Source: a virus (Duplodnaviria; Caudoviricetes). From it: 58,780 nt of DNA. The notes beneath the pieces were generated by a model, which searched no databases, was not told the origin of the DNA, and worked only from the letters and a program-made list of their open reading frames with translations. The position numbers and the translations under genes were made by a program. The DNA is taken from IMG/VR virus record IMGVR_UViG_3300016484_000424, positions 1 to 58,780 of that record. The stretch is one strand, 5' to 3'. Shown here piece after piece: positions 13 through 58,175 of this stretch (positions within the stretch are counted from its first letter, which is position 1; the number at the start of each line of letters is the position of its first letter).

Positions 13-105
13 GCCTAACGTTCGAGGTGTGGCGCCCGCCGCGCAACCGACGTGCAAGTAAGGCGCGACCCGCTGCGGCGGGTCGCTACGACCGAGGGGT
101 TAGCC
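13..105 (-). mobile_element. attC-like site R3 (93 bp)
   Basis: Minus strand GGCTAAC-ccctc-GGT(C)GTAG...CCACACC-tcgaac-GTTAGGC: R''/L''/L'/R' boxes with the extra base at position 4 of L''. Confidence 0.85.
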
Positions 106-142
106 GGCGTGGTGAACGCAGGCACTGACGACGAAGGAAGAC

Positions 143-445
143 ATGAAGCGCATTTACATCAGCGGCCCGATGACCGGACTGCCAGAATTCAACTTCCCGG
201 CGTTCCACGCTGCCGCAGCCAAGCTGCGCGAGCGTGGGCACACTGCCGTGAACCCGGCCGAGATCAACACCGAGACGGGGGGCGACTGGCACTACTACCT
301 GAAGGCCGACATCAAGGCGCTCTGCGACTGTGATGCGCTGGCGCTGCTGCCAGGATGGCAGAACAGCAAGGGCGCCCATTTGGAGCTGCACATTGCGCAC
401 CGCTTGGGCTTGGAAATCGGAACGGTGGATGAGTTCGCCGGCTAA
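143..445 (+). CDS. DUF4406 / nucleoside 2-deoxyribosyltransferase-like protein (cassette-borne)
   Basis: RIYISGPMTG...N.PAF...NPA...LPGW..SKGA..E motif; stop codon falls in GGCTAAC. Confidence 0.85.
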   Translation: MKRIYISGPMTGLPEFNFPAFHAAAAKLRERGHTAVNPAEINTETGGDWHYYLKADIKALCDCDALALLPGWQNSKGAHLELHIAHRLGLEIGTVDEFAG

Positions 446-496
446 CGTTGCAATTGAGCCGCGCCGGTAGGCGTCGGCTCGAATTGCTTGTTCGGC
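440..496 (-). mobile_element. attC-like site R4 (57 bp)
   Basis: Minus strand GCCGAAC-aagca-ATT(C)GAGC...GCTCAAT-tgcaac-GTTAGCC; perfect L''/L' pairing. Confidence 0.9.
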
Positions 497-518
497 TTCT
501 TGGTGGAGTGAGGACTCT

Positions 519-1274
519 ATGAGCAGGATACTGTGTCAGTTTTCGTGCGGTGCGGCGAGCGCGGTTGCCACGAAGCTGGCGATTGCGCAGAACGCAGGCG
601 CGGTGCCGCTGCTGGTGCTGAACGCCTACCTTGAGAACGAGCACCCGGACAACCGCCGATTCGCGGCCGACTGCGAACGCTGGTTCGGCGTGCCACTGAC
701 CGTGCTGCGCGATGAGAAGTACGGCGCGAACATCATCACGGTGTTTCGGCGGCGCGGGTACATGAAAGGCCGGTATGGGGCGCCCTGCACGACGAACCTG
801 AAGCGCGAGCTGCTGAAGACCGTGGAGCAGCCCGGCGATGTGCTGGTGATGGGCTTCGACGCCAGCGAACAGGACCGCTTCGACGATTTCCAAGAGCGCA
901 ATCCAGACCGCCCAGCGCGTGCGCCGCTGATTGAGGCCGGGCTAGGCAAGGAAGACTGCAAGGCGATGGTGCAGCGCGCCGGGATTGAACTGCCAGCGAT
1001 GTACCGCATGGGCTACGACAACGCGAACTGCATAGGCTGCGTGAAGGGCGGAGAAGGCTACTTCCGCGCCATCCGCGAGGACTTCCCGGAGCAGTTTGAG
1101 GAACTGTGCAGGGTGCAGGACGAGCTGGGCGAAGGCTCCTTCCTGCACCGCGACCGCACGACGAATGTGCGGTTCAGCCTGCGCGACCTTGGCCCCGGCA
1201 CGGTGCGCAGAAACGAAGCCCTGCCCGCGTGTTCGTTCTTCTGCGAACTGGCGGAGCAGGAGTACGCGGCATGA
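519..1274 (+). CDS. PAPS-reductase-like adenine nucleotide alpha-hydrolase family protein (cassette-borne)
   Basis: FSCGAASAVA PP-loop-like start, EHPDN.RF, PCT..LKR, Y..G...ANCIGCVKGG, C-terminal CSFFC. Confidence 0.8.
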   Translation: MSRILCQFSCGAASAVATKLAIAQNAGAVPLLVLNAYLENEHPDNRRFAADCERWFGVPLTVLRDEKYGANIITVFRRRGYMKGRYGAPCTTNLKRELLKTVEQPGDVLVMGFDASEQDRFDDFQERNPDRPARAPLIEAGLGKEDCKAMVQRAGIELPAMYRMGYDNANCIGCVKGGEGYFRAIREDFPEQFEELCRVQDELGEGSFLHRDRTTNVRFSLRDLGPGTVRRNEALPACSFFCELAEQEYAA

Positions 1275-1375
1275 GCGATGGCGATTTGAGCGCGCTATTC
1301 ACCCTGCTGGCAATACCTGTTGGCGGGGCGATTGCGGCGCTTGTGTTGTGGCTGATCTTGCGAGAGCGAGATTGA
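1271..1375 (+). CDS. Small single-TM protein
   Basis: ATGA overlap with the upstream gene; hydrophobic stretch; stops just before the attC. Confidence 0.55.
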   Translation: MSDGDLSALFTLLAIPVGGAIAALVLWLILRERD

Positions 1376-1376
1376 A

Positions 1377-1429
1377 GCCGAACTCACCGCTGACCGGCTC
1401 GAAGAGTCCGGTCTAGCAAGACGTTGGAC
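1377..1429 (-). mobile_element. attC-like site R5 (53 bp)
   Basis: Minus strand GTCCAAC-gtctt-GCT(A)GACC...GGTCAGC-ggtga-GTTCGGC. Confidence 0.85.
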
Positions 1430-12569: not shown

Positions 12570-13388
12570 ATGGCAAAGCTCGCTGACATCATCGGCTGCA
12601 CGACCACCACCACCGGCACAGGCACGCTGACGCTTGGCGCTGCGCTGACTGGGCTGCGCACGTTCGCTGCTGCGTCCGAGTTGGCCGATGGCGATGTGGT
12701 GCCCTACTCGATCAAGGCCAGCAACGGAAACCAAGAAACTGGCACTGGCACGCTTGGCAGCAGCAAGACCACGCTCACGCGCACTCTGGGCTCGTCGAGC
12801 ACGGGCTCGCTGCTGTCACTGACCGGCACGTCTGAAGTAAGGCTGTCAGTCGTTGCATCTCAAGTCGGCGACACATGGTGGGCCGCAAATGGCGCCGGCA
12901 ATGTGCGGTCCAGTGCGCTGACAGGTGTTGAAACTGAGATTACTGACTCGACCATTCTAAACGGCGATTCCGTCCTGACCGGCTTTCGCAAACTGATTGC
13001 CCGCGCAGCAGGAAAAGCCGCTCTTGCTGCAGCTCAGACATTCTCAGGGGCGCAGCGCGGATCTATTACGACGCTGACACCAAGCGGGACTATCACAATA
13101 AATGCCAATGACGGCAACTTCTTCACCCTAACACCGAATGCCAATTTTGGTATTGCAAACCCGACCAATTTGGCCGCTGGCCAATCTTTCGTAATTGAGA
13201 TTACACAGCCGGCCAGCGGCGGGCCACGGGTTATCAGCAGCTGGGGGTCTTACTTTCACTATGCCGGCGGTCTTTCCACGCTCCCGGCATTGAGCACGGC
13301 TGCAAATGCGGTTGACGTTATAAGCTGCATCGCCTGGACATCGACGCGCATTCAGATTATCGGCATTGCCAAGGATGTGAAGGCATGA
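12570..13388 (+). CDS. Tail fibre-like protein
   Basis: TTTTGTGTLTLG start; AQTFSGAQRG; NPTNL.AGQS...I.Q...G.R; LSTAANAVDVIS. Confidence 0.7.
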   Translation: MAKLADIIGCTTTTTGTGTLTLGAALTGLRTFAAASELADGDVVPYSIKASNGNQETGTGTLGSSKTTLTRTLGSSSTGSLLSLTGTSEVRLSVVASQVGDTWWAANGAGNVRSSALTGVETEITDSTILNGDSVLTGFRKLIARAAGKAALAAAQTFSGAQRGSITTLTPSGTITINANDGNFFTLTPNANFGIANPTNLAAGQSFVIEITQPASGGPRVISSWGSYFHYAGGLSTLPALSTAANAVDVISCIAWTSTRIQIIGIAKDVKA

Positions 13389-13909
13389 TTCCCGGGGCGC
13401 CACTCCCCTGGGTGCCGACCGCCGCAAGTACGTCATCTGTCAATGTTGCGCTCGCAGCTAATGGAGCATCAGCAGCAGCGTCCAGTCAGCTCAGCGCAAA
13501 TTTTCCGCCGTCGTCAGCTATTAACGGCTCGCGCACGGCGGCGGGCTGGGGTTCAGGGTCTGGTGGCTGGGCATGCGGTACGCCCAATACGTGGCCCGAT
13601 TGGTTGGAGGTGACGTTTGCAGAATCTAGCTCGATCCAAACAATCAACGTTATCGGCATACCGGATAATTTCGGAGACGCCCCAGAACCCACACTAAGCA
13701 TGGTGGCTACGGAATTCCCGCTAACAGATTTTGTCGTCGAGTATTGGGACGGGTCGGCATGGGCCACTGTTCCGGGCGGGAATGTGACCGGAAATGATAA
13801 AGTATGGCGGCAGTTCACATTTATCCCGATAACGACGACAAAGATACGGGTTTATATTACAGCCGGATATGCTTATTCAATCATTTGCGAACTTGAGGCG
13901 TGGACATGA
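13385..13909 (+). CDS. Discoidin/F5-8 type C (galactose-binding-like) domain protein
   Basis: NVALAANGASA.ASS, AING.R, PDWLEVTF, YWDGSAW, TTKIRV, ELEAW. Confidence 0.75.
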   Translation: MIPGAPLPWVPTAASTSSVNVALAANGASAAASSQLSANFPPSSAINGSRTAAGWGSGSGGWACGTPNTWPDWLEVTFAESSSIQTINVIGIPDNFGDAPEPTLSMVATEFPLTDFVVEYWDGSAWATVPGGNVTGNDKVWRQFTFIPITTTKIRVYITAGYAYSIICELEAWT

Positions 13910-14457
13910 GAACCGTCACAAAATACGTATCCGCTTCTGGGGCGCAAATATCTGCCGACTGGTGGGCGGCTGATGACGGCACGCACTACCTTGTGCGCGC
14001 TCTATCGGATGAGCAGCGGCAGGCGCTGGGCATCACAACCACGACTGAGCAGATACCGGAGCCGCCCGCGCCCAGCTTGGCGTCCCAAAAATCGATGGTG
14101 GTGGCCCAAATCGACGCTGAAGTCGATGCCATCTATCGATCTGTGATTGGCGAGCGCCAGCCAGAGTATGCAGAGGCGGAAAAAGAGGCTCAGGCGTACA
14201 AGGACGCTGGCTACACAGGTAGCGTCCCTGGCTATGTGGCTTCGTGGGTCACTGCCTCTGGCAAGACCGCGCAAGCTGCCGCTGATGACATCCTGAGCAC
14301 CGCTCAGGCATGGCGCGCTGCTGCGGGTGCGATGCGCGCAGCGCGCCTGGGGCACAAGGCACAAGCAGGCGCAGCGACGACTCAAGCGGCTCTTGATGCT
14401 GTGCGCGCATCCTGGGTCACGTCAATCGGTCAAATCCGGGCTGCGCTGGGGCTGTAA
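13906..14457 (+). CDS. Tail fibre assembly-like protein
   Basis: QID.EVD..Y, EY..AE.EA.AYK.AGY, AADDIL..A..W...R.ARL. Confidence 0.6.
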   Translation: MRTVTKYVSASGAQISADWWAADDGTHYLVRALSDEQRQALGITTTTEQIPEPPAPSLASQKSMVVAQIDAEVDAIYRSVIGERQPEYAEAEKEAQAYKDAGYTGSVPGYVASWVTASGKTAQAAADDILSTAQAWRAAAGAMRAARLGHKAQAGAATTQAALDAVRASWVTSIGQIRAALGL

Positions 14458-26242: not shown

Positions 26243-27666
26243 GCCGCGGACTTGCAGCACTTGGATCTCTGGCCGATGGCATCGCTCAGGGCATGGTCCT
26301 CGGGCGCGACCTGAAGGCCCGCGACATGGCGCTTGAACAGCAGAAGCGCCAGATGGACGAGCAGGCCGCCCTTGCCGCCGACATGAAGGACGCCGATCAG
26401 GCCGCCCGTGAACTGGCCCTGAAGTACCGCGCCGAGCACGACCAGCAGTACAAGGGCTTGGGTGCCTACATGACCCGTGGCGGATCGGACGGCTCCCTTG
26501 CGGACGCACAGCAGGACGCTGTTTCGCAGCCTGTGCCAGAGTTCAAAGCTACGCCCCAACAGATGCTTAAGGTTGCTCAGGCCAGGACTGCCCGGCTATT
26601 CGAGAAGGGGCGCACCGATCAGGCATTCAAGTATTGGATGCAGGACGAGGGCCTGCGCCGAGAACTGCGCGGGCAAGCTGGCCAGGATGCCATGGCAGCC
26701 CTGTCGTCTGGTGGCGACGCGACCAAGGCTCTGAGCAGCTTCTACGACCTGTTCGACAACGGTCACGACATCACTTCGGCCGTTCCGCAGAAGAGCCTCG
26801 ATGGCGGCTCAGGCTACCTGATCACCCGACGCGGGCCGGACGGCAAGGAAGTCTCTGCCTTCATGACGCCGGATGAGATCGGAGCCGAGATCAACAAGCG
26901 CGTCACGAACTGGCAAGACGCAGCCAAGGAGTCGTTTCAGCACAACCTCAAGTTGGCTGCGATCAAGGCTCAGGGTGACAACCAAATCCGCGCGCAGAAC
27001 GCCATCACTGACCGGGTGCTGTCGAACACCGACGCCAAGGGTCAGAACGCGCTGACACTGCAGGACTCGAAGAATGCTGGCACTGCCAATGTCGCCAACA
27101 TCAACGCCAACTCGCGGGAGAAAGTTGCAGAAACCAACGCGCTGTCGCGTGAGAAGGTCGCTTCCATGAAGGAGGCCATGAAGAAGGCTGGCGTTGACGG
27201 AGAGGATCGCGTCCACTCAGTTGTCCCGAATGGGAACGGCACCAGCACCGTGTGGTTCCGCAGCGGGAAGAAGGTCATTGATTCCGACAATGAGACCTTG
27301 GCGTACACGAAGTTCATTGGGCAAACGGCCGGGCAAATCTCCAAGACTCTTGAAGGCTCCATGGCGCCATACGAGAAGACTCTCGGGGAGGCGCGCAGGT
27401 TGATCTCGAAGTCTGTGCCAGCAGGGAGCAATACCCCAACTTCTGGCGAGCGCGTCGATCCCGCCCGTCAGGCCGTGCTCGATGCAGACCGCGTGCGGAT
27501 CTTGAAGCAAGAGCTGGCGAAGACGACCGACCCGACGGACCGCGCGGCGCTTGAGCGCGAGCTGGGCCGCGCGACCGGAGCGCCGCAGCCATCCCTTGCC
27601 GACGCGAACAAGCCGAAGCCGGGCCCACGCATGCGCTTCGATGCCCAAGGCAACCTGATCAAGTGA
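26239..27666 (+). CDS. Ejection/internal virion protein
   Basis: Helical low-complexity sequence; lies before the giant protein. Confidence 0.6.
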   Translation: MSRGLAALGSLADGIAQGMVLGRDLKARDMALEQQKRQMDEQAALAADMKDADQAARELALKYRAEHDQQYKGLGAYMTRGGSDGSLADAQQDAVSQPVPEFKATPQQMLKVAQARTARLFEKGRTDQAFKYWMQDEGLRRELRGQAGQDAMAALSSGGDATKALSSFYDLFDNGHDITSAVPQKSLDGGSGYLITRRGPDGKEVSAFMTPDEIGAEINKRVTNWQDAAKESFQHNLKLAAIKAQGDNQIRAQNAITDRVLSNTDAKGQNALTLQDSKNAGTANVANINANSREKVAETNALSREKVASMKEAMKKAGVDGEDRVHSVVPNGNGTSTVWFRSGKKVIDSDNETLAYTKFIGQTAGQISKTLEGSMAPYEKTLGEARRLISKSVPAGSNTPTSGERVDPARQAVLDADRVRILKQELAKTTDPTDRAALERELGRATGAPQPSLADANKPKPGPRMRFDAQGNLIK

Positions 27667-27672
27667 GACCCC

Positions 27673-30600
27673 ATGGCTCGTGAAATTGAGTTGCACGATG
27701 GTACGGTCCTCGAATTTCCAGACAACACGCCGGATGACGTGCTGCTTCGCGTTGGCAAGCAGGAGACGCTGAAGCTCAACCAGTACAACACCGACGAAAC
27801 ATCGCGCCTTGCTGCGCGGGCCAATGCGGCGAAGGCTGATCCGGCGCCAGTTGCTGACGCGCCAGACAACTCGCCAGCGATGCCGATCGTGCCGTCATCG
27901 ACGCCATCGGTCTATGCCAACCCGGTGCAGCGCCTGCGGCGCATGGACAACCAGCAGCAGGCCGCGGCCACTGCGGCGACGCCACTGCTTGACCGGCCTG
28001 TTCCGGGCTATCAGCCATCGGGAGCCGACCTTGAGGCGATGTCCAATGCGCCGTCAGTGCTCCAGGCTGACGCGCGAGCCAAGCGGCCGTACCAAGAGGC
28101 CAAGCCGCTGACGTTTGCGCAAGAAGTCGCGGCCGACGTGGGCGACGTGGCGCGCAAGAACCCGCTGGCGGCTGGCGTAGTTGCTGGCTTCTCGGGTCTT
28201 GGCAAGGTTGGCGTGGGCGCCGTGCGCGCGGGAGCCGATCTGGTTGGTGCCGATGGCATCGCCAAATCAGCCGCTGGCGCGAGCCGCCTTGCCACCGACG
28301 TAGAGCAGCAGGCGACACGAGGCCTGGACGGCAATGCAAAGCTGGTGGCCGACGTTACCAGCTCGATCATCAACAGCGCGCCATCCCTGGCCATGGGCAT
28401 GATGGGCGGCCCCGCCCTGCGCACGCTGTTTGTCACTTCGGCGGCCAATGAGTACAACGCCGGCCGCGATGCTGGATTCAATGGCGCAGAGTCGGCGGCA
28501 CGCGCCGGCATCATGGGTGCGGCCGCGGCCATCGGCGAACGCTTTGGCTTTGCGCAGCAGATCGGCTTGCTCAAGGGCGCCATGAAGCGCATGCCGTCTG
28601 GCGACATGGCGAAGCTGCTGGGCCAGATGATCACCAACGAAGTGCCGGGCGAGCAGTTGACCACCGCCCTGCAGTTCCTGGCCGACAAGGCTGGCCCTGC
28701 GGCACTGAACCCGAATGCGACGGTTGAGGACTACCTCAAGGCCGCAGGCGAAACGTTGAAGGTCACGCTTGGCCAGTCGGCCGTCATGGGCGGCGGCCCG
28801 GTGGCAATCAACAAGGCGCGTGAAACACTGAAGCGGGTTGACTCTGGCTCGGGCGTGCGGGACATCCGCATTGCAGACGCCATCGACGCAGCCGAGCCCC
28901 CCAAGCGCCCGACCGAACTGCGCACCGAGCACATTGCCCGTGTTGACGACTTCGCGGCCACCCATGGCGTGCCGCCGACGGTGGTCAGCAAGATCAAGTC
29001 TGCACTGGACGGCGTGCCGCTGGCGCAACTGCCGCAGGCCACACGGGCGATTGTCTCGACCCTGGCCGAGCGCGGGATCATCCGGGCGCCGGTGGACGAG
29101 CAGACGCTGGCGAGCCTGGATGCGCCTGCACCGGTTCAGAGTGCGCCGAAGGATGCCATCCCGGCGGCCGACCTGATCGACCCGCAAGAGCCGAGCGCTC
29201 CACCGCCTGCCGACCCGCAGACCATTGCAGGCCCAGCCATCAACCGCAACTGGACGGCATTCAGCCCCGAGTCGGGCTCGCTGGGCATACCGCGCGACCA
29301 GATGCCGCAGATCCCGAACCGCGGCGCCCTGGCGAACTTCCTGGCCGCCAAGGGCATCGAGCGCCAGACCGGCATGGTGGACCCTTCGGAACTGAAGCCC
29401 ACGCAAGGCGAGTTCTCGCCTCAGAAGATCACGGAATCCGATTCCAGCCGATCGGTCATCGTTTCGAGCGACGGGTACATTCTGGATGGGCACCACCAAT
29501 GGCTGGCCCACTTGAACGACGGGGCGCCTGTCAGCGTCATCCGGTTCAACGCACCGATTCAGGATCTCCTGCGCTTGGCGCACCAGTTGCCGAGCAGCAC
29601 CACGGCCAAAGGGCCGACCATCAAGAAAGCCCAACCAGATGCAGGAACTGTTGACGGAAATGCTGGGCTTGGAGTTGATCAACCTGGAGCAGTTCAGCGA
29701 AGCGATGGCCTTCAGGATGTCCCCAGGGCTGATGCCGGAGCCGCTGCTGTTCCACCTGATGGGCGCCGAGAGCCTGATGGACCTGGACCCGGAAAGCGCG
29801 ACGATGCACTGACGCTGGACACGATCCAGCCGGGCGACATCACGCGGCCGGGTGGGGCGCCTTTCAGGACCATGGCAAATGCCATGTCGGCGCTGTCTCG
29901 CGCTGGCCAGGACACGCACGAGCTCGCAAGGGTCGAGGGCGGCTTGGTTGTCAGGGCGAAGAAGCAGGATCAGGGCGCTGCTGCGCCTGTAGGGGCCGGG
30001 AGTTCCCAGCCGTCGCCTGCTTCTTCGGCACCTGTTCGCGTCATCGCAGACGCTGGCCGCACGCGGGCTCAGGCGGTGCAGTTGGGCGTTGTTCCGAACG
30101 CTGACGGCTCCCTGACGCCCGTGATCGGCGGCGCACCGGTTCTGCAGAAGACCGGCGAGCCCGTGACCATCAAGCCTGATGCGACTGACCTTCAGATCAA
30201 GAAGGCTGTGCGCGAAGCAGGGACTGTGCCTGAGGCGGTGAAGTTCTACCCGCCTGCGGTGCAGGAGGAAGACGCGCCGCCAGCACCGAGGATCGACAAG
30301 GCGAAACTCGGCGCGATGACGGCTGACGAACTCGCCAGCGCTCATGAGACAGCGCGCGCCCACAACAAGGAAGTTGAGCGCATCGGCCTGAAGAAGTTCT
30401 TCGGCGCCGAGAAGGCCGACGAGTTGATGAAGCTGCCGCAACGCAGGCGCGACAAGTGGATGAGCGAGAACCTGACCGTCGAGCAAGACGACTGGATGCA
30501 GGCTCGCTATGCCAACGAGGACGATGTGCAGTCGTTCAAGACCACGGCGCATTCGTTCGACACGGAGAGCGCGGCCGCGCTTGGCCGATCCATCGCCGTG

Positions 30601-33600
30601 CCGTCACGCAAGGTCAACGATCCGGGGTTCTTCGATACCCCTGACGGCGCCATGGTGCGCAATGCCCTGAGGTACGCCAAGGCCCAGGGTTGGGACATGG
30701 ATGCGGTTGTCGGCGCGATGCGCGGCCGCGCTGCTGAGTGGGCCGGAGACGATGCGCCCGAGTTGTTCGGCCGTCTGTTCAAAGAGGCTGGAGTGAAGCT
30801 GCCGAGTGCAGCCATACCGAAGGCCATCGAAGCACCCACCACCAAGCCCGAGAGTGCGGTTCCAACTGGTGACCGCACCCAAGAACGCGCAGAGCACGCC
30901 GCCCTACTCGAAGAAGCAGGCATCACCAAGGAAGAGATCAATGCGCTCCATGGCACCGACATCACAGAAGCCCTCGCTGAATCTCCCGCCAAGGCTGAAG
31001 ACAAGCCCGCAGCGCGAAGCACTGAGGCAGGGGGCGCTGAGCAAGATCCGGGAGATGTCGCCGGAGAAGCGGCAGCGCCTGATGCTGCTGGAGGCCAAGA
31101 GGCGGGGCCTGACCGTGAAGGGCTGACCCTCACCACGCACACCACCGCCAAGGGCAAGACCCTTGAGGGCTACATCGTTGCTGTCAGCAAGGAGCGCGCG
31201 GCCGAGATCGACCCCTATACATTCCGCAAGGATGGGGGCTACTTCATCCGCAAGGCCCGTGCTGATGAACTGAGCAAGGAAGAACTTGCGGCCCTGGCTG
31301 ATGCGAAGCCTGTGGAGGCGGCAGCCAAGCCTGAAGCCGCGGAGCCGAAGGCAGAAGCCGAGCCCGAGAAGCCCAAGGCCAGCAAGACGGCCGCCATGCG
31401 TGCGGTGGCCCAGCGCGCCATCGAAGCCGCCCAGGCCGACCAGTCGCGCGACCGGAACACGAACACCGCGCGCCGTGCTGCAATGGCGAGTTCTGCGGAG
31501 TCTGACGCTCGCAAGCGCGAGGCAGTTGGCCGAACGATGCTGAACCTGGCTGACGCCATCGACAAGGGCGAAGCGCCTTTGCTGGAGGGCATCACTACGC
31601 GGGCACACGTTGAGGAACTGGACAGGGCGCTCACGGCGGCCATGTACGAGAGCGACCGAGGCTTGTCCTACGTGGAACAGCAGCGCCAGAAGGGCCGCGC
31701 GCCGGAAGAGCGCGACATCGCTAACGCCAAGATTGTGCAGCCGTCATGGAGCAATGGCGGTGCCAACAAGGAGAAACTGCGCGAAGCCATCAAGGGCAAG
31801 AAGGGTGTCCGCGAGGTCGAGAAGTTGCTGTTCGGCCCGCCGACTGCCGAGCTTCTGGCGGCCGTCAAGGCTATGGGCGTGTCCAAGAAGGACATTGACT
31901 ACGCTTTCGGCTGGTGGAACATCGAGGCGATTGCCCGCGTTCAGCGTCTTGCCAAGGTCGGCATCAAGACGAACGATGACTTGCGCGCTGCGCTGCGGCA
32001 GTACATTCAGTTCAAGGACGGCCCGAAGGCCGAAGACCCCATCAAGGCCCTGGAGCGCAAGTTGATCGGCTCCAAGGTGGGCTTTGACTTCTTCCCCACG
32101 CCCGCTGGCGTTGCCCAGCAGATGGTGCAACTGGCCGACATCAAGGCTGGCGACCGCGTGCTTGAGCCAAGCGCTGGCAACGGCAACATCGCTGACGCAG
32201 CCAAGGCCGCAGGCGCCAAGGTGGATGTCATCGAGATCAGCAGCCAATTGCGCGAGCTTCTGGAGGCCAAGGGCTACCCGGTTGTCGAGAACGACTTCAT
32301 GAAGTTCGAGCCCGCCGAGAAGTACGACGCGGTGCTGATGAACCCGCCCTTCAGCAACCGCCTGGACGCCGAGCACATCCGCCGCGCGTTTGGCATGGTG
32401 AAGCCCGGCGGCAAGGTCATCGCCATTGCTGGCGAAGGCGTCTTCAACGGCTCCGACGCGAAGGCCAAGGAGTTCCGCGACTGGCTGGACGAGGTTGGCG
32501 CAGTGGTCGAGAAGCTGCCCGAGAAGACCTTCACCGACTCCAAACTGCTGGCTCAGACTTCGACCAACGCACGGCTGATCACGATTGCGGCGCCTGCCGC
32601 ACAAGCCGCTGCCCCCAGTGCAACCACAGATGCACAGAAGGCTGCGAAGAGTGAGGAAGTTGCAGCAGAGCCAGCCAAGCCAGCAGCGCAGTCCAAGAAC
32701 TCCACAAATCTGTTTGAGGAGTTCATTGCGAGTTATGAGACTCCGCAAGAGGCTGGTGCCGCACGCAAAGCACTGGGCGCAACGGTGACTTGGAAAAACG
32801 GACTCACGGGGGCCTTGTCGGACCACATCCTTTCTGAGTATTCGGCTGGCGCCCGCGTTGTTCTGAGTGCCAGCGGGCCAGCGTTTGTCCACAAAGACAT
32901 GAAGGGATGGTCTAAGAGCAACATCGGCGCGTACGGCATGCAGTTTGCCAATTGGCTTTCGTCGCAAGACGATGTTGGAGCCAAGCCAGCAGCGCAGGCT
33001 GAGAAGGCCCTATTCAACACCAAGGATGATGGCTACACTGCGACCAATGAGTTCCAACCCGACTTCTCAGAGCCCGCAAGAGCAAACATCCGGCTGCTTA
33101 CTCGTGGAGTCGGAGGTCGGGCCAATACGGTTCATCCTTATGTCGGAAGAAGCGTATCAGCGGATGCGCCCATCAGCCTTGTGGCCCAGGCCATCGGAGC
33201 GCGAGTACAGTGGTTCGGAGTACGGAGCAGTCTGGACGCGCAAGACAAGCGTGACTTCGGATTCTTCAACGGCGCAACCATTGGCGACACCATCTTCCTT
33301 CGATCCGAAGGCGTTGACAGACCGCACCTGACGGTTCTGTTTCACGAGTTCGCGCACTACTTGCGGAAGACCGATCCGCAGGCTTACGCGGAACTGGTCG
33401 ATGCTGTTTCGCCATTCGTCAAGGTAGACAAGTACGAAGCGGAATTTCCGAATACGGCTGTGGCGCGCAACGTCAAGACGCCTGACGGAGTTCAAGAAGA
33501 GTTCATGGGCGAGGTGCTGTCTGACGCATCCATGAGCCCCAAGTTCTGGAGCGCCCTCGGCAAGAACAACCCCTCGCTGCTTCAGAAGGTGGCTGGCTTC

Positions 33601-36600
33601 ATCTTCGACATGATCAACAAGATCAAGGCGACGGTGGGCTACTCCAACAAGACCGAGAAGTACCTGAGCGACTTTGACCGGGTGATGGAGCTTGTGGGCG
33701 AAGTGCTGGCGAAGCACGACATCAAGCCCAGCAGTCTCAGGGGCATGGATGGCAAGCCGGTCTACAACCGCAAGGAAGACGAAACCCCTGTCACCTCGCA
33801 AGGCCGCCTGAAGTCCAAGGTCGGCGACATGATCAATTCCCACTTCGCTGGCACGATCAGCGGGTGGGACAAGACAGTGGGCACGCCGTACAACCTGGCG
33901 CAGCGCAGGCCTCAGTTCAAGCGGGTGTTTGATGGCCTGACGGACTTCATCAATGGGGTTTCGACCTTTGCGCATACCGCCGCTGACAAGGCGCCGACGT
34001 GGCTTCCAAGTCTGAACAGCGTCAGCGACTTCTTTGAGCGCCGCCCTGCGGACAGCAAATCATTGCTTCCATTCCGCATCAAGACCCCAGTGAAGCGCGA
34101 AGACAGCGATGCCGTGGCAAAGCCCATCTTCGAGGGCACCATCGCCTGGACCCGCGACGGCAAGGGCGAGCCCATCAAGATCGAAGAGGCCAAGGCCGCC
34201 GCCGAGAAGTTGAGCGTGGACGAGAAGGCCCGCGCGCTGCTGAAGGGCGGCCACGTCGCGCCGCGCGTGCTGAAGATGTGGCAGGGCCAGGAGCTCGACG
34301 CCTACGAGAAGATCATCGTCGGCAAGTACGAGCGCGACATGCTGGCTACCGGCATCGTCTTCACGCCCGACGAACTGAAGTCCATCTTCGGCCTGACGCC
34401 CAAGCAGATCGGGCTCTACAAGGAGTTCCACGCTGGTGTGGGCAAGAGCCTGGAGGACATGACGGTTTCGGCCATGCTGCGCGTTGGCGGCAAGGACACG
34501 GCAGACTTGCGCGAGCAGGCCCTGAAGATGTCCATGGACGATGCGGCCGAGTTGCTGCGCGACCGGATGTACGAACTGGCTGCCCAAGCATCTGGCAAGG
34601 CCAAGGAAGAGTTGGACGCCGCCGGCGACCAGATGATCGAACTGGCCGACAAGGTGAGCGCACTGAAGCGCCGCGGCTATGCCCCGCTGATGCGTTTTGG
34701 CGACCTGACCATCACGGCCTACGACAAGACCGGCGAGATGACCTACTTCGGCATGTACGAGGGCAAGGTCGAGCGCTTCACGGCCCTGCAGAAACTCAAG
34801 GCCGAGTTCCCTGAGGCAACCTTCAAGATGGGCTCAGTCTCCAAGGAAGAGTACAAGCAGTTCGCGGCCATCTCGCCCGAAACCCTTGAGCTCTTCGGCG
34901 ACATCATGGGCGACAAGCTGGGCTTCAACACCAGCGATCCGGTCTATCAGGAGTACCTGCGCAAGGCCAAGGCCAACAACTCGGGCATGAGGCGCCTGAT
35001 CCACCGCAAGGGCACGGCAGGCTACCGCGAAGAGCCGGCCCGCGTGCTGGCCTCGTTCATCTACTCCAATGCCCGGCAGACCTCGCGCAACCTGCACTCA
35101 GGCGACATCGCCCAGGCCATCGCCGACATTGACCGCGAAGAAGGTCAACTGAAGGACTACGCGATCAAGCTGGACGAGTACGTGCGCAACCCGCAGGAAG
35201 AGGCGCAAGCCATCCGTGGGCTGATGTTCGTCAACTTCATCGGCGGCTCGCTGGCCAGCGCTGCTGTCAACCTGACCCAGCCGTTTGCCGTCACCCTGCC
35301 CTACCTGCACGCCTTCGACGCCAAGGCCAGCCTCAGGATGAGCAACGCCCTGCGCGTGATGTGGTCCAAGAAGACCGGCAACACCAAACTGGACGCAGCC
35401 ATCGCAGAAGCCGAGCGCATCGGCATTCTGGATCCGCAGGAGATCCACCACCTACAGGCCCAGGCGCGCGGCGCCGAGCAACTGAAGTCTGGCAGGGGTG
35501 TGATCGGCAAGACCGCGGCCAAGGCCAGCAATTCACTTTCGCGCCTGATGGTCCTATGGGGCACGCCGTTCAGTCTGGCCGAGGCCTTCAACCGCCGCCT
35601 GACCTTCGTGTCGGCCGCGATGATCGCCATTCACAAGGGCATGGACCCAGTGGAGTTCGGCAAGAAGGCGATTGCGGAAACGCAGTTCGTGTATTCAAAG
35701 CACAACAACCCGGTATGGGCACGCGGCGCAGTCGGCGCAACCCTGTTCACCTTCAAGAAGTTCGGCGTCTCATGGATCGAAACCATGGTTCGCTTGGCCA
35801 ACTCCGGCCCGCAAGGTAAGGCCGCTGCGCTGGTCATGCTGGCCGCGCTGGTCATGCTGGCTGGTGTTGATGGCCTGCCCTTCCGCGAAGACCTTGAAGA
35901 CCTGATCGACGGCTTTGCCAACCGGGTGCTGGATCGCAACTTCCAGACGAAGGCATGGCGACACAAGCTGACCAAGCAAGTCTTCGGTGAGGGCTGGTCC
36001 AACTTCGTGAACAACGGGCTGTCGGGGCTGCCGGGATCGCCGATCGACGTGTCGGGTCGCTTGGGTATGCACAACCTGATTCCGATGACCGGCCTGATGG
36101 TAAAGAAGACGGACTACACCCGCGACGTGATGGAGATCACTGGCGCGGCCGGCGGCATCCTGAAGCAGTATGCTGAGGCAGCCGCTCTTCTTGCCGAAGG
36201 CGAAGTCTTGCGTACCGCGGCAAAGGCGTTGCCGATCGCAGGACAGAACATCCTCAAGGCGGCAGACATGGCGAACACTGGCGCCTACCGCGATGCTCGC
36301 GGGTACATCGTGACGAAGACGACGCCGGCCGAGGCCGCAGCCAAGGCGATTGGCTTCCAGCCGAAGTCGGTGGCCGATGAGCAGGAAGACAACTTCGGCC
36401 AGCAGCGCCGGATTGCCTTCGTCAAGATGGTTGAATCCGAGCTGGTCGAACGCATGGCGGCCGGCAAGTTCTTGAAGGATGAGGACATGTTCAAGGCAGC
36501 CAATGATCGCTTGGCCACATGGAACAAGGACAACCCGGACTCAGTGATCAAGATCGACGCCCGACAGATCATCGAGCGCGTGAAGAAGATGAACACGCCG

Positions 36601-36672
36601 AAGAACCAACGCATCATCCAATCCGCTCCGCGCGAAATGCGGGGCTCCGTTCAGGAGGCATTCCAGCGATGA
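27673..36672 (+). CDS. Giant polyvalent virion protein (PLxRFG family) with ParB-like, N6-MTase-like and zincin domains
   Basis: ILDGHHQW; FFPTP, VLEPSAGNG, NPPF; LFHEFAH; YAPLMRFG. Confidence 0.85.
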   Translation: MAREIELHDGTVLEFPDNTPDDVLLRVGKQETLKLNQYNTDETSRLAARANAAKADPAPVADAPDNSPAMPIVPSSTPSVYANPVQRLRRMDNQQQAAATAATPLLDRPVPGYQPSGADLEAMSNAPSVLQADARAKRPYQEAKPLTFAQEVAADVGDVARKNPLAAGVVAGFSGLGKVGVGAVRAGADLVGADGIAKSAAGASRLATDVEQQATRGLDGNAKLVADVTSSIINSAPSLAMGMMGGPALRTLFVTSAANEYNAGRDAGFNGAESAARAGIMGAAAAIGERFGFAQQIGLLKGAMKRMPSGDMAKLLGQMITNEVPGEQLTTALQFLADKAGPAALNPNATVEDYLKAAGETLKVTLGQSAVMGGGPVAINKARETLKRVDSGSGVRDIRIADAIDAAEPPKRPTELRTEHIARVDDFAATHGVPPTVVSKIKSALDGVPLAQLPQATRAIVSTLAERGIIRAPVDEQTLASLDAPAPVQSAPKDAIPAADLIDPQEPSAPPPADPQTIAGPAINRNWTAFSPESGSLGIPRDQMPQIPNRGALANFLAAKGIERQTGMVDPSELKPTQGEFSPQKITESDSSRSVIVSSDGYILDGHHQWLAHLNDGAPVSVIRFNAPIQDLLRLAHQLPSSTTAKGPTIKKAQPDAGTVDGNAGLGVDQPGAVQRSDGLQDVPRADAGAAAVPPDGRREPDGPGPGKRDDALTLDTIQPGDITRPGGAPFRTMANAMSALSRAGQDTHELARVEGGLVVRAKKQDQGAAAPVGAGSSQPSPASSAPVRVIADAGRTRAQAVQLGVVPNADGSLTPVIGGAPVLQKTGEPVTIKPDATDLQIKKAVREAGTVPEAVKFYPPAVQEEDAPPAPRIDKAKLGAMTADELASAHETARAHNKEVERIGLKKFFGAEKADELMKLPQRRRDKWMSENLTVEQDDWMQARYANEDDVQSFKTTAHSFDTESAAALGRSIAVPSRKVNDPGFFDTPDGAMVRNALRYAKAQGWDMDAVVGAMRGRAAEWAGDDAPELFGRLFKEAGVKLPSAAIPKAIEAPTTKPESAVPTGDRTQERAEHAALLEEAGITKEEINALHGTDITEALAESPAKAEDKPAARSTEAGGAEQDPGDVAGEAAAPDAAGGQEAGPDREGLTLTTHTTAKGKTLEGYIVAVSKERAAEIDPYTFRKDGGYFIRKARADELSKEELAALADAKPVEAAAKPEAAEPKAEAEPEKPKASKTAAMRAVAQRAIEAAQADQSRDRNTNTARRAAMASSAESDARKREAVGRTMLNLADAIDKGEAPLLEGITTRAHVEELDRALTAAMYESDRGLSYVEQQRQKGRAPEERDIANAKIVQPSWSNGGANKEKLREAIKGKKGVREVEKLLFGPPTAELLAAVKAMGVSKKDIDYAFGWWNIEAIARVQRLAKVGIKTNDDLRAALRQYIQFKDGPKAEDPIKALERKLIGSKVGFDFFPTPAGVAQQMVQLADIKAGDRVLEPSAGNGNIADAAKAAGAKVDVIEISSQLRELLEAKGYPVVENDFMKFEPAEKYDAVLMNPPFSNRLDAEHIRRAFGMVKPGGKVIAIAGEGVFNGSDAKAKEFRDWLDEVGAVVEKLPEKTFTDSKLLAQTSTNARLITIAAPAAQAAAPSATTDAQKAAKSEEVAAEPAKPAAQSKNSTNLFEEFIASYETPQEAGAARKALGATVTWKNGLTGALSDHILSEYSAGARVVLSASGPAFVHKDMKGWSKSNIGAYGMQFANWLSSQDDVGAKPAAQAEKALFNTKDDGYTATNEFQPDFSEPARANIRLLTRGVGGRANTVHPYVGRSVSADAPISLVAQAIGARVQWFGVRSSLDAQDKRDFGFFNGATIGDTIFLRSEGVDRPHLTVLFHEFAHYLRKTDPQAYAELVDAVSPFVKVDKYEAEFPNTAVARNVKTPDGVQEEFMGEVLSDASMSPKFWSALGKNNPSLLQKVAGFIFDMINKIKATVGYSNKTEKYLSDFDRVMELVGEVLAKHDIKPSSLRGMDGKPVYNRKEDETPVTSQGRLKSKVGDMINSHFAGTISGWDKTVGTPYNLAQRRPQFKRVFDGLTDFINGVSTFAHTAADKAPTWLPSLNSVSDFFERRPADSKSLLPFRIKTPVKREDSDAVAKPIFEGTIAWTRDGKGEPIKIEEAKAAAEKLSVDEKARALLKGGHVAPRVLKMWQGQELDAYEKIIVGKYERDMLATGIVFTPDELKSIFGLTPKQIGLYKEFHAGVGKSLEDMTVSAMLRVGGKDTADLREQALKMSMDDAAELLRDRMYELAAQASGKAKEELDAAGDQMIELADKVSALKRRGYAPLMRFGDLTITAYDKTGEMTYFGMYEGKVERFTALQKLKAEFPEATFKMGSVSKEEYKQFAAISPETLELFGDIMGDKLGFNTSDPVYQEYLRKAKANNSGMRRLIHRKGTAGYREEPARVLASFIYSNARQTSRNLHSGDIAQAIADIDREEGQLKDYAIKLDEYVRNPQEEAQAIRGLMFVNFIGGSLASAAVNLTQPFAVTLPYLHAFDAKASLRMSNALRVMWSKKTGNTKLDAAIAEAERIGILDPQEIHHLQAQARGAEQLKSGRGVIGKTAAKASNSLSRLMVLWGTPFSLAEAFNRRLTFVSAAMIAIHKGMDPVEFGKKAIAETQFVYSKHNNPVWARGAVGATLFTFKKFGVSWIETMVRLANSGPQGKAAALVMLAALVMLAGVDGLPFREDLEDLIDGFANRVLDRNFQTKAWRHKLTKQVFGEGWSNFVNNGLSGLPGSPIDVSGRLGMHNLIPMTGLMVKKTDYTRDVMEITGAAGGILKQYAEAAALLAEGEVLRTAAKALPIAGQNILKAADMANTGAYRDARGYIVTKTTPAEAAAKAIGFQPKSVADEQEDNFGQQRRIAFVKMVESELVERMAAGKFLKDEDMFKAANDRLATWNKDNPDSVIKIDARQIIERVKKMNTPKNQRIIQSAPREMRGSVQEAFQR

Positions 36673-39733: not shown

Positions 39734-39794
39734 GCCTAACAGGGCAATAGATCAGACCGGGCCGCGCCCGGCTCGCTCATCGCCAGCGTTAGGC
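39734..39794 (+). mobile_element. attC-like site L1 (61 bp)
   Basis: GCCTAAC-agggc-AATAGATC...GCTCATC-gccagc-GTTAGGC; L boxes imperfect. Confidence 0.8.
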
Positions 39795-40168
39795 CGCAGG
39801 GCCAGCATCGCTGCGCGGTACTGTTCGGTCTGCAGACGTTTCAGCGGTTCCTCGTTGCGCTTCAGCGCGCACCAAGCCACAGCGCCCGCCCACCCCCATT
39901 GCTCAACCGCTGCGCGCACTTCCTTCGCCTCGTGCGGCTCAAGCGCGCAGGCATCGGCGCTGGCGTAGTAAAAGGTGTCGTTGCAGTTCACGGCCGCGTG
40001 CCATCCATCATCCCAATCGCATATGCCCGAGTTGTAAGTGCCGAAGAAAACGTAGTTCCGCGCAGCTAGCCAAAACAGGTGCTCGCAGTCCTCCAGCGTC
40101 AGCGGCCTAACAGGTCGCTCAAGCGGGACCGCGTCGGCGCGGCTGCGTTGGTTTGCTTCGTCACTCAT
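39752..40168 (-). CDS. Hypothetical protein, cassette L2
   Basis: AAGGAGG RBS and start lie inside attC L2; NCNDTF.YA.ADA motif; ends inside attC L1. Confidence 0.8.
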   Translation of the reverse strand: MSDEANQRSRADAVPLERPVRPLTLEDCEHLFWLAARNYVFFGTYNSGICDWDDGWHAAVNCNDTFYYASADACALEPHEAKEVRAAVEQWGWAGAVAWCALKRNEEPLKRLQTEQYRAAMLALRPNAGDERAGRGPV

Positions 40169-40206
40169 GGCTCGCGCCTCCTTGTCCGGTTAGCTTTGCG
40201 TTATGC
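40105..40206 (+). mobile_element. attC-like site L2 (102 bp)
   Basis: GCCTAAC-aggtc-GCT(C)AAGC...GGTTAGC-tttgc-GTTATGC. Confidence 0.85.
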
Positions 40207-40470
40207 ATGCTCGAAGACATGGAACACCAGAGCGCCACCATGCGTTTGGTATGTGCCGATGAATCGCCCGATGATGTCTGGCAGATCAGGCATTGGCTTG
40301 ACCGTGCCATAGGTGGAAAACGCGCGCGATTCTGTCGGCGCCGTTTCATCAACAAGCGCCCACAGTTGCGGATCGCCGCCTTGCATCTGCACGCTCAGAA
40401 CTTCGGCGCCGCGCGGCATCAGCAATTCCTGATAGTCGGTTACCTGAAGGGTCCATTTCCAAATCCTCAC
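40201..40470 (-). CDS. Conserved small phage protein, cassette L3
   Basis: IWK..L.....Q...MP.GA.VLSVQ.Q....LWALVD...FIGT.Q...G.LVFHVFE. Confidence 0.8.
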   Translation of the reverse strand: MRIWKWTLQVTDYQELLMPRGAEVLSVQMQGGDPQLWALVDETAPTESRAFSTYGTVKPMPDLPDIIGRFIGTYQTHGGALVFHVFEHA

Positions 40471-40491
40471 GGCTCACTCCTTGCCATCAAT

Positions 40492-40578
40492 GCATAACAT
40501 CTAGCTGCAACAGACGCGCTGCAGCATTTGGGTTAATCGGTGCGTCCAGCGGGCGCGCTGTTGAGCATGGCGTTAGGC
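40492..40578 (+). mobile_element. attC-like site L3 (87 bp)
   Basis: GCATAAC-atcta-GCT(G)CAAC...GTTGAGC-atggc-GTTAGGC. Confidence 0.9.
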
Positions 40579-40865
40579 GGCTCGTGGCGCGCGGGCGGCC
40601 ATGCAGCGCGCGGGCTTTCGGCGTTGTCGGCCTCCATTGCCACCATCAGCGCAATCAGGGCTTCGCGGGTTCGCATCGAACGGCCGCCGCCAGCGCCGCC
40701 AGCGCAAAACTCCACCGTGCTGGTGTGAACTTGGCTGCCCATGCCCGTGCCGGTAACGGCCAGCACTACATCGCCGTCGTCCTGCAAATGCAGGACCATC
40801 TGGTGGTCGCCTGCAGGCCCCATATCGCCGCATCGTCCTACCGTCCGTTTCTTCGGCCATTCCAT
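40533..40865 (-). CDS. Hypothetical protein, cassette L4
   Basis: VEFC..G.GGGRS..TR.AL..L..AM..DN motif; C-terminus runs into attC L3. Confidence 0.75.
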   Translation of the reverse strand: MEWPKKRTVGRCGDMGPAGDHQMVLHLQDDGDVVLAVTGTGMGSQVHTSTVEFCAGGAGGGRSMRTREALIALMVAMEADNAESPRAAWPPARHEPPNAMLNSAPAGRTD

Positions 40866-40899
40866 CGCTCTCGCCCTTTCGTGCCTTCGTTCACCAGCC

Positions 40900-40997
40900 G
40901 CATAACACGTCGCTCAACACGAGCGCCAACGGGTCACGGCCTTTGCTCCTGTCCAGTCCTTCCCGCCGCTGGCTCCGTGTTAGCTCCAACGTTAGGC
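40900..40997 (+). mobile_element. attC-like site L4 (98 bp)
   Basis: GCATAAC-acgtc-GCT(C)AACA...TGTTAGC-tccaac-GTTAGGC. Confidence 0.9.
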
Positions 40998-41348
40998 CTT
41001 ACCGGGCCGCGCACGGGCAAAAGCTCCCACGCAGCTCGTGTCGCTCTTGGCCTGCTGCCTGAGTTCGGCCGCCGTGGTCACGCGCGGCTTGCTTCGGTGC
41101 TTGGCCGCTACCGCTTCAAGTTCTCGCGGCGTCACCGGCGCATTCATGTAGCCGCCCGCGTAGTCAGCGAGCGCCATGCGCAGTATCTGGTGCGCCTCGC
41201 GCCCTTCCGCGATCCGCACAACTTCCGGGGAGCGGTTTAGCAGCGCCACGGCTTGGCACACTGCAGCGTGCAGCGCTTCGGCGGCAGCAGGCCTAACCCC
41301 TCGGTCAACGGCGACACCTGCCGGCTGGTCACTCTTGCTCATCTTCAA
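40992..41348 (-). CDS. Hypothetical protein, cassette L5
   Basis: AGGAG RBS and start lie inside attC L5; stop falls in the core. Confidence 0.7.
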   Translation of the reverse strand: MKMSKSDQPAGVAVDRGVRPAAAEALHAAVCQAVALLNRSPEVVRIAEGREAHQILRMALADYAGGYMNAPVTPRELEAVAAKHRSKPRVTTAAELRQQAKSDTSCVGAFARARPGKA

Positions 41349-41391
41349 TCTCCTGTAGCGCCGCCGTCAGCGGCTCAACTCTGCGTTAGAA
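41291..41391 (+). mobile_element. attC-like site L5 (101 bp)
   Basis: GCCTAAC-ccctc-GGTCAACG...GCTCAAC-tctgc-GTTAGAA; L boxes pair poorly (possible hybrid). Confidence 0.7.
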
Positions 41392-41853
41392 CTCACCCTC
41401 CGCCACCTGGAAGCATGGCACGCCGGCAGCGCGCCACATCTTCACCATCCGGTCGCGGTCCTCAAACACTGCCACCAGCCGCGCCTTGTCGCTGACCAGC
41501 ATGTCGTCAAGCCAGCGCTTCTTGAGCACGTCGTCTGGTGTGTAGTCGCCGGCCTTGCGCATGGTCAACATCGGGCCTTCCAACTCCCAAGACATGAAGG
41601 TCGTCTTGTCGGCCAGCCACTTGACCGTCTGCGTCCGCACCTCATCGCTGCGCCCGCTGAAAATCCAGATGTCGGCCCCCGCATGGCGCAGCCGTTCCAT
41701 CGTGTCGATAACAGGGTCGTTCGGGAGGTCGTCCGCGCACGCGGCGTAAAACGCTTTCCAATCTTGTTCGCCGCGCGGGCGCTCCACGTACTTGCGGCGG
41801 TGCTCAATCAGCGCCAGGGTGCCGTCAAGATCAAAGATGTACAGAGGTCTCAT
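41386..41853 (-). CDS. HAD-family phosphatase (PNKP 3'-phosphatase-like)
   Basis: IFDLDGTL, SGR, MR..GD..PD..LK, FEDR..V.MWR..G.PCFQVA. Confidence 0.85.
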   Translation of the reverse strand: MRPLYIFDLDGTLALIEHRRKYVERPRGEQDWKAFYAACADDLPNDPVIDTMERLRHAGADIWIFSGRSDEVRTQTVKWLADKTTFMSWELEGPMLTMRKAGDYTPDDVLKKRWLDDMLVSDKARLVAVFEDRDRMVKMWRAAGVPCFQVAEGEF

Positions 41854-48716: not shown

Positions 48717-48760
48717 TGCTTACTCCCGGTTGTGCAGCGCTTGGTGGCTGCGATGGGAGT

Positions 48761-48790
48761 AACTCTAGCGCGACGCTAGGCTAGCGTCAA
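48761..48790 (-). promoter_or_regulatory. PL promoter with operator
   Basis: TTGACG-N17-TAGAGT containing CTAGCGTCGCGCTAGA. Confidence 0.75.
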
Positions 48791-48832
48791 GCTAGTCACA
48801 TGTAAAATTTCGCAACGCTGGTCGGTGACCGG

Positions 48833-48860
48833 CAAAAAGAAAGCCCGCACTGGGCGGGCT
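48833..48860 (-). terminator. Intrinsic terminator of the cI transcript
   Basis: AGCCCGC-ccagt-GCGGGCT-TTCTTTTT. Confidence 0.75.
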
Positions 48861-48972
48861 GATGCTGCGAGGCAAAGGAGAAGTTAAATGAATGACCGCT
48901 GCTACTACACCCAAGAAGGCAAAGTTGTTTGGTCAGCCACGGTTGACGCCGTGCGCGACGAACCAGTTGACG

Positions 48973-58149: not shown

Positions 58150-58175
58150 CACCCGTAACCGAAGCGAGGAAGACG

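Follow-up and report, generated by a model that had tools for sequence, protein, structure and literature searches.

Mirror-image attC cassette arrays in the genome of an uncultured tailed phage

Introduction

Groups of clustered attC sites that have no integron integrase (CALINs), and even complete integrons, have already been published for phages (Qi 2023, Front Microbiol, PMC9892861). According to the available text of that study, 17 CALINs are present in 10,705 isolate-phage genomes, the typical arrays are co-oriented like bacterial ones, and the integrase IntI1 recombined five of the six phage attC sites tested; we found in that text no statement on the polarity of the sites relative to the genes. 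Here, we analyze a viral sequence (Duplodnaviria; Caudoviricetes), IMG/VR record IMGVR_UViG_3300016484_000424, whose full length of 58,780 bases is referred to below as the window, and show that it carries arrays of integron-type attC sites built in mirror image with respect to their genes. Like the phage CALINs, as far as these are described in the text of Qi 2023 (PMC9892861), the arrays lie in a phage and are without intI, and in relatives of the window they carry methyltransferase and other accessory cargo. Unlike those CALINs, they have a polarity that is reversed throughout and sites of a Burkholderiales type, and they are frequent in uncultured viral contigs (25 stretches).

The same attC sequence type and architecture are found in the sedentary chromosomal integrons of Burkholderiales (Ideonella, Rubrivivax, a Vitreoscilla genome bin and others). 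Reverse-oriented cassettes are known from chromosomal integrons, such as toxin-antitoxin cassettes with their own promoters, whose genes run antisense to the top strand of attC. These form a minority inside otherwise canonical arrays; here, by contrast, whole arrays and an entire phage cassette pool are reversed. In the literature that we surveyed, with supplements and subscription journals outside its scope, no description was found of uniform mirror-image polarity, of start codons embedded in the hairpin loop, or of the abundance of this Burkholderiales-type family.

Results

The five sites of the main array are integron attC sites

The preliminary description of the window placed attC sites at 13–105, 440–496, 1377–1429, 58092–58149 and 58617–58704. 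All five are confirmed at these positions as genuine integron-type sites, and the attC cassette array to which they belong is real. In each site, a box ending in AAC and a box starting with GTT enclose an imperfect, bulged hairpin. The AAC and GTT that are conserved in the inverse-box consensus RYYYAAC...GTTRRRY (Nivina 2016) are present in all five and in the four stronger sites of a second array, with deviations from the consensus at degenerate positions in some of them (e.g., GGCTAAC, GGGTAAC, GTTAGCC). The + strand layout comprises a 7-nt box ending in AAC, 5–6 unpaired nt, 3 bp, a bulged G (T in 1377–1429), 6 bp and a bulged T, followed by the stem, a short loop (GTA, GGTA or GAA) and the box starting with GTT. 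The extrahelical bases expected of an attC hairpin are thus present, as T and G bulges 6 bp apart in four sites and as T and T in 1377–1429. This arrangement of box, spacer, bulge and stem is identical, position by position, to that of the class 1 cassettes of plasmid R46 (aadA1, orfD, oxa2).

Two covariance models connect the window sites to accepted attC sites. Model R1 was built from 15 viral-contig sites plus the five window sites, so that its window scores are those of training data: 65.5 bits for 58092–58149, 60.1 for 13–105, 50.9 for 440–496, 39.2 for 58617–58704 and 28.7 for 1377–1429, all on the + strand. The best R1 match outside both window arrays scores 12.4 bits. On 50 kb of plasmid R46 (NC_003292), the top four R1 matches are the four class 1 attC sites (49.8 bits for orfD, 46.7 for aadA1, then 17.9 and 15.2), and the next match scores 10.7 bits. 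Model R2, built from 150 sites of bacterial arrays only, those of the Burkholderiales integrons, offers an independent test of the window sites and recognizes four of the five: 13–105 (61.1 bits), 58092–58149 (52.5), 440–496 (27.5) and 58617–58704 (23.1). The link to accepted sites therefore holds through R2 in 4/5 cases and through R1 on R46 in 4/4.

Folding energies, compared with those of shuffled sequences, give z values of –5.2 (440–496), –4.6 (58092–58149), –2.2 (58617–58704), –2.0 (1377–1429) and –0.7 (13–105). This is weaker evidence, and the claim would not stand on folding energy by itself. An energy-only scan of the whole window for AAC...GTT hairpins failed to separate the sites from long GC-rich stretches and was set aside.

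The sites belong to a large family. Viral contig L002 carries three very similar elements around a homologous cassette, and one exact two-part pattern taken from these elements occurs in 25 IMG/VR stretches and in 102 stretches of bacterial genomes. Among 96 distinct viral sites, 91.9% of the pair cells are standard pairs, in an alignment fitted to the model, which favors high pairing. Both-sided changes occur in 291 cells, versus 80.7 ± 7.6 in shuffles (0 of 500 shuffles reach the observed number), and slid-register controls on the same alignment pair at 25–47%.

Each hairpin precedes the gene to which it belongs

As set out in the available text of Nivina 2016, the extrahelical bases of the recombined bottom strand of attC are on the arm opposite AAC, while those of the top strand share the arm with AAC, with G at position 16 and T at position 23/24, separated by a 6-bp stem, and a spacer of 5–6 nt; the bottom strand is purine-rich and often has a GAA loop. 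On the + strand of the window, the bulges are found at positions 16 and 23 from the 3′ end, on the arm opposite AAC, and it follows that the + strand is the attC bottom strand. R′, where the crossover takes place, is thus the box next to the upstream stop codon, and R″ is the more distant one. Because R′ adjoins the upstream stop codon, the hairpin belongs to the downstream gene rather than the upstream one. Plasmid R46 confirms this: although R1 derives from the coding strand of the phage sites, its matches to the R46 sites are all on the strand that does not encode oxa2, aadA1 and orfD.

Canonical polarity, with the gene on the top strand and attC 3′ of the gene, is not what the window shows: all four supported cassette genes lie on the R1 (bottom) strand. 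The canonical polarity assumed in the preliminary description is therefore contradicted, the coding strand being the one that carries the attC bottom strand. Each cassette consists of a hairpin and then a gene, the mirror of the bacterial gene-then-hairpin arrangement.

The generality of this polarity was tested by taking, for each stretch between two sites, the longest open reading frame (ORF) of each of its two strands. For viral arrays in 24 related records (150 ORFs, 75 distinct intervals), all 23 ORFs supported by PHROGs lie on the R1 strand. The bacterial arrays with the same site type differ: among 141 ORFs tested, none of the nine supported by Pfam lies on the R1 strand, so that family-supported genes are on the top strand in 9/9 cases (Fisher p = 3.6e-8 for 23/23 versus 0/9). 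A coding-strand test based on codon-usage log-odds also selects the R1 strand, in 6/6 cases in the window and 85/91 in the viral arrays. The presence of a stop codon in the 5′ box was tried as a strand test and proved non-discriminating at this G+C content (50/87 versus 56/87 on the other strand). Polarity reversal is general in this phage family.

Boxes pair better between neighbors than within sites

Each attC site of an integron array has one of its end boxes from the neighboring cassette. Boxes should therefore pair better between neighboring sites than within a site, and such complementarity of neighbors is the footprint of cassette circles. Three matches between cassette ends had been proposed for the main array, and each is verified letter by letter: 99–109 with 436–446 (11/11), 490–499 with 1374–1383 (10/10), and 58143–58156 with 58609–58622 (13/14). 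The preliminary description also noted that R″ and R′ mismatch within each site. Scored over 10 variable positions, neighbors average 7.67 (8, 7 and 9 in the main array; 8, 6 and 8 in the other array) versus 4.11 within sites (5, 3, 3, 4, 7, 3, 3, 3 and 6; one-sided Mann-Whitney p = 0.0016). Related viral arrays behave in the same way: the mean is 7.76 for 62 neighbor pairs, whereas the 88 own sites and all other pairs have means of 5.10 and 5.11, respectively (p = 2.7e-18); scores of at least 9 are reached by 29% of neighbors, 2% of own sites and 1.3% of other pairs. The bacterial arrays give 6.78 for neighbors versus 5.62.

Variation between contigs is bounded at the AAC of the 5′ box

Sequence comparisons place the boundaries of variation at the 5′ box. 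Metagenome contig L143 is nearly identical to the window from AAC 58621–58623 to the window end (4 differences), whereas the sequences of the two upstream of this AAC are unrelated. Viral contigs L017, L020 and L023 are otherwise identical, but after a 5′ box that all three share, each continues with a hairpin and cassette of its own. A further difference among them amounts to exactly one cassette; of the second site, the 3′ part is retained in the survivor. In addition, L023 has, relative to L017 and L020, a 32-base deletion inside a cassette ORF that is otherwise identical in all three.

A cassette-precise deletion is seen in run X1, which is probably the source sample, where one contig joins 443 to 1381 and skips 937 bases (unit 446–1382). 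The joint is ambiguous by three shared letters, which are the two AAC triplets, 444–446 in site 440–496 and 1381–1383 in site 1377–1429. Crossovers that cut the two 5′ boxes between the second A and the C would be expected to give this product. Breaks in the Logan contigs occur at 446 and 1381, and the depth in X1 is about 11 over the cassettes versus 18.7 for the backbone from 1381 on. A variant with the cassette-precise deletion thus coexists in the sample, and the joint also vouches for the weak site 1377–1429. Runs X2–X14 contain only small shares of the window and were not used for habitat or host. Taken with the box complementarity, these data show both features of an integron cassette, an R box completed by the neighbor and variation bounded at the AAC/GTT crossover, with the deletion joint coming from one contig.

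The DUF4406 and PAPS (3′-phosphoadenosine-5′-phosphosulfate) reductase-like genes of the main array have distant homologues (67–73% nucleotide identity) in cultured phages of Pseudomonas and Acidovorax, around which no attC site is found at E<0.1 in the three loci searched (10.1 kb). At this level of identity the boundaries are not refuted; the result shows that the same genes also occur outside cassettes.

Composition of the main array and the ends of the contig

All parts of the main array lie on the + strand. The first site, 58092–58149, has a 5′ arm that doubles as the last codons of ORF 57865–58122. It is followed by a cassette gene of 148 amino acids (58176–58622), which matches phrog_13384 over residues 2–38 and has its stop codon TAA within the 5′ box of the next site. 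The first third of this gene and its leader are 80% identical to the cassette in L002; by blastn of the window cassettes against all fetched loci, this L002 cassette gives the sole match, to the first third of 58150–58616. The next site, of 88 nt (58617–58704), is the one after whose AAC the identity with L143 begins. Beyond it, a cassette gene starting at ATG 58729 (58705–58780) is truncated by the contig end. At the other contig end, the tail of an unseen cassette (1–12) leads into the 5′ box of site 13–105, which is 93 nt in length and has a long, variable loop. The gene behind it, 143–445, is DUF4406 / nucleoside 2-deoxyribosyltransferase-like (PF14359, E 1e-27; phrog_355, E 1.7e-38), and its stop codon TAA falls in the 5′ box of the 57-nt site 440–496. 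The cargo of the following cassette (519–1375) comprises two ORFs, the PAPS-reductase-like gene 519–1274 (phrog_424, E 2.1e-47; the PF01507 match is below the Pfam cut-off) and a hydrophobic ORF of 34 amino acids (1271–1375). The array closes with its weakest site, 1377–1429, the loop of which is GAA.

The preliminary description had the array continuing from 58092–58780 into 13–1429. Both contig ends do lie inside an array, but they are not contiguous. If the ends were joined, the 58729 frame would stop after 22 codons at the TAA in box 13–19; L143 speaks against this, since its frame is 150 codons long and terminates at a box that pairs with 58698–58709. The first 19 bases of the window match the box expected after the L143 gene less well (7/10). 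A contig from the probable source sample has eight other letters ahead of window base 1, which differ from the window end. Because of the L143 continuation and these other letters, we reject the join. At least the rest of one cassette is absent between the contig ends, and probably more; the assembly broke inside the array.

A second array and start codons in hairpin loops

A sister array lies on the – strand at 39734–41391, in the leftward early operon, downstream of the polynucleotide-kinase gene 41386–41910. It consists of sites 39734–39794, 40105–40206, 40492–40578 and 40900–40997 and a weak site, 41291–41391. In this order, R1, which had not been trained on them, scores the sites at 31.9, 18.0, 25.6, 44.6 and 11.2 bits, and R2 finds all five at 27.2, 13.3, 19.7, 44.0 and 17.0 bits. 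With respect to its genes, which are on the – strand, this array is reversed in the same way, and one of its cassettes, 40201–40470 (–), matches phrog_3848.

Many of the longer viral sites display a start codon. A ribosome-binding site and start codon are found in the loop of 18 of the 39 long viral sites (at least 80 nt), with a frame that stays open for at least 40 codons beyond the site; this compares with 1/39 on the opposite strand of the viral sites and 2/122 bacterial sites, which makes start codons inside sites rare in the Burkholderiales integrons. Examples with a loop ribosome-binding site and ATG are 40105–40206 and 41291–41391 of the window and 657–759, 1016–1114 and 2064–2181 of L143. 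In these sites, the 3′ arm and the box supply the first 15–20 codons of the cassette protein. Start codons in the loop tie the hairpin to the downstream gene.

Genomic position of the arrays

The window is the whole IMG/VR virus record, which is classed as linear and is 89% complete by CheckV. Its divergent operons are separated by a control region near 48.8 kb. At 48757–48889, between these operons, lies a strong palindrome of CTAGCG/CGCTAG-like repeats, followed by a GC-rich hairpin and a purine-rich stretch like a ribosome-binding site; the whole resembles an operator/control region. The leftward operon encodes an Erf-like annealing protein, an exonuclease and polynucleotide kinase. Its rightward counterpart encodes a ParB-like protein, an HNH endonuclease, a helicase, a primase, a RusA-like resolvase and a DUF968/HNH protein, and then passes the contig ends to reach the small and large terminase genes and the structural genes. 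The main array, which spans both contig ends, is sited between the resolvase/HNH genes and the terminase. Among seven related records having a phrog_2 terminase match, three have an array in the slot just upstream of the large terminase.

The proposed "lambdoid moron position" is thus supported only as a slot between the RusA-like resolvase / HNH gene and the small terminase. The label "Q" for the protein encoded at 57240–57776 could not be verified, as searches of Pfam, PHROGs, NCBIfam and PDB sequences gave no match to this protein, and the related-locus search found no relatives of it. Positions 57700–58780 have no blastn match in isolate phages.

Some other features of the window were recorded. 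An ORF at 27673–36672 (+), of 2,999 amino acids, has a central DNA-methyltransferase-like part (phrog_15406, residues 1223–1674) and a large C-terminal part that matches phrog_11358 and phrog_21376, both families of unknown function. The HNH endonuclease gene 52099–52650 (+; phrog_59, E 5.5e-45), between the ParB-like gene and the helicase gene, sits in a stretch of lower G+C content (0.57–0.59 at 52–54 kb). A further G+C dip, to 0.553 at 13001–14000, falls inside the structural-gene block, in surroundings of about 0.63–0.65.

Integrases in viral relatives and bacterial genomes

The sites of the main array share one strand, with three of them inside 1.4 kb and the other two inside 0.7 kb. With no integrase in 58.8 kb, it agrees with the definition of a CALIN (Cury 2016, PMC4889954), and the earlier label "CALIN-like" is upheld. 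It is not a complete integron (intI, attI and cassette promoter), since intI is lacking; attI and the promoter, as integron-specific sequences, were not searched for.

A complete IntI was found in one of the 24 related viral records, and fragments in two to four others. The complete one (426.8 bits, above the cut-off), in L019 / L139 (record G022, 26719–29962), stands beside five attC sites and on the same strand as the sites and cassette genes, so that the cassettes are transcribed towards intI. N-terminal integrase fragments lie beside attC arrays in L025 (record G027; 134.5 bits) and L015 (record G018; 63.7 bits), and the G027 fragment is on the strand opposite the R1 matches.

The 102 bacterial stretches with the exact site pattern come mostly from Burkholderiales (Ideonella, Rubrivivax, Methylibium, Hydrogenophaga, Vitreoscilla), usually from dense arrays, and an IntI above the TIGR02249 cut-off is present in all five such genomes tested. 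The Burkholderiales integrons differ from the window in that IntI adjoins the array, in two genomes on the R1-match strand, as in R46. Since the chromosomal integrons of Ideonella and Rubrivivax share the site type, the hosts of the phage are likely to be Burkholderiales like these.

Discussion

The interpretation that best accounts for these data overall, and which we consider probable, is that attC sites divide the accessory region of this phage into mobile cassettes that are recombined by a host IntI, with a polarity that is the reverse of the canonical one. A host-supplied integron integrase would fold the bottom strand of two sites and cut each site between the second A and the C of AAC, and the DNA between would be excised or exchanged. 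With the bottom strand as coding strand, the crossover falls at the stop codon of the upstream gene. It is likely that IntI is the enzyme and that the host supplies it in trans, given the lack of an integrase in the window, the IntI in genomes of the host type, and the recombination of phage attC by IntI1 reported in the text of Qi 2023.

Reversal may also have consequences for the rate of exchange. As far as the available texts of Loot 2017 and Richard 2024 go, cassette excision is greatly raised when the recombining strand is both the non-template strand and the lagging-strand template. If the genes are co-oriented with transcription and forks leave an origin in the replication module, reversal would place the recombining strand on the non-template / lagging-template strand in both arrays and so favor shuffling. 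The polarity would also leave any phage cassette that is captured at a bacterial attI in antisense orientation to the integron promoter.

Several points weigh against this interpretation. The window has no tyrosine recombinase match (TIGR02249 or PF00589) in its 58.8 kb, in a record that is about 89% complete and whose missing part may carry an intI. At the level of individual sites, the fold energy of GC-rich 13–105 is no better than that of shuffles (z –0.7), and R2 does not detect 1377–1429 (E<=1). The X1 joint is a single contig with a depth of 4.5 and 27 letters on its shorter side, below a caution line of 30, and X1 is probably the source sample and hence not independent. The indel between L017 and L023 is flanked by two sites identical over about 52 nt, so homologous recombination could also produce it. 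With regard to polarity, family support exists for a minority of intervals, 23/75 viral and 9/~71 bacterial, and the libraries differ (PHROGs for viral, Pfam for bacterial arrays), with both strands tested equally in each. The codon-usage test gave 42 same-strand, 26 opposite and 18 ambiguous results in bacteria and was dropped there, Pfam placing 9/9 on the opposite strand. Finally, the viral status of the relatives is the call of IMG/VR, and a phrog_2 terminase match is found in only 7 of the 24.

It has also to be asked whether the sites are derived from attC and now inactive, serving as intercistronic hairpins (weak terminators, mRNA stabilizers or start-codon loops), with cassette differences that are old. 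We think this unlikely. A window without integrase would fit, as would a part for the hairpin in gene expression, as implied by the 18 of 39 long viral sites with a start codon in the loop; the idea that attC may contain weak terminators is itself cited in the text of Qi 2023 (PMC9892861). Old, inactive sites would, however, leave whole-cassette differences between contigs identical elsewhere hard to explain, together with a cassette-precise deletion that coexists in the sample and a neighbor box complementarity that is still high, and the bulged bases are retained even though RNA hairpin roles do not need them.

A different possibility is that cassettes are gained and lost by ordinary homologous or slipped recombination between similar repeats, rather than by a site-specific reaction. 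The ~52 nt of identical flank at the L017/L023 indel could serve such a process, and integrase-independent loss of short cassettes between similar sites is reported in the available text of Loot 2017; but the X1 joint falls on the AAC of 440–496 and 1377–1429, sites which share little else, and the breakpoints of window/L143 and of L017/L020/L023 coincide with the 5′ box and are followed by hairpins that differ. Nor would homology-driven exchange yield complementary boxes in neighbors, and we judge this process very unlikely to be the source of the variation. Canonical polarity, with the + strand as top strand and each hairpin belonging to the upstream gene, has scarcely any chance of being correct: upstream stop codons do lie in an RYYYAAC-like box, as in many classical cassettes, and neighbor box complementarity fits both polarities, but the bulges are on the arm opposite AAC, R1 matches true attC only on the strand opposite their genes, the breakpoints and deletion joint fall at the 5′ box and not at the 3′ GTT, and the loop start codons tie the hairpin to the downstream gene.

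Reversed cassettes recombined by a host IntI would bear on several questions. The mechanism that joins genes to attC sites was called unknown in Cury 2016 (PMC4889954), and the large, coherent pool of reversed phage cassettes, made with the same site type as the canonical integrons of the hosts, provides a second natural case on cassette origin. In practice, pipelines that pair each attC with its upstream gene mis-assign cargo here, since each site goes with the gene downstream of it. In these arrays there is a concrete, testable mechanism for accessory-gene exchange at exact boundaries just ahead of the packaging genes, with a cargo of methyltransferases, nucleotide-metabolism genes and PAPS-reductase-like genes, and they link phage gene flow to the activity of the host integron integrase.

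More tentatively, and with rather less confidence than not, we suggest that Burkholderiales phages keep a mirror-image cassette pool of their own, often with loop-displayed start codons and shuffled by the host integrase, and that the reversal is adaptive. If this is true, reversal would keep phage cassettes silent in a bacterial integron and bacterial cassettes silent in a phage, attC sites would be a designed module boundary behind phage mosaicism, and phages would be a second, independent site of cassette genesis.

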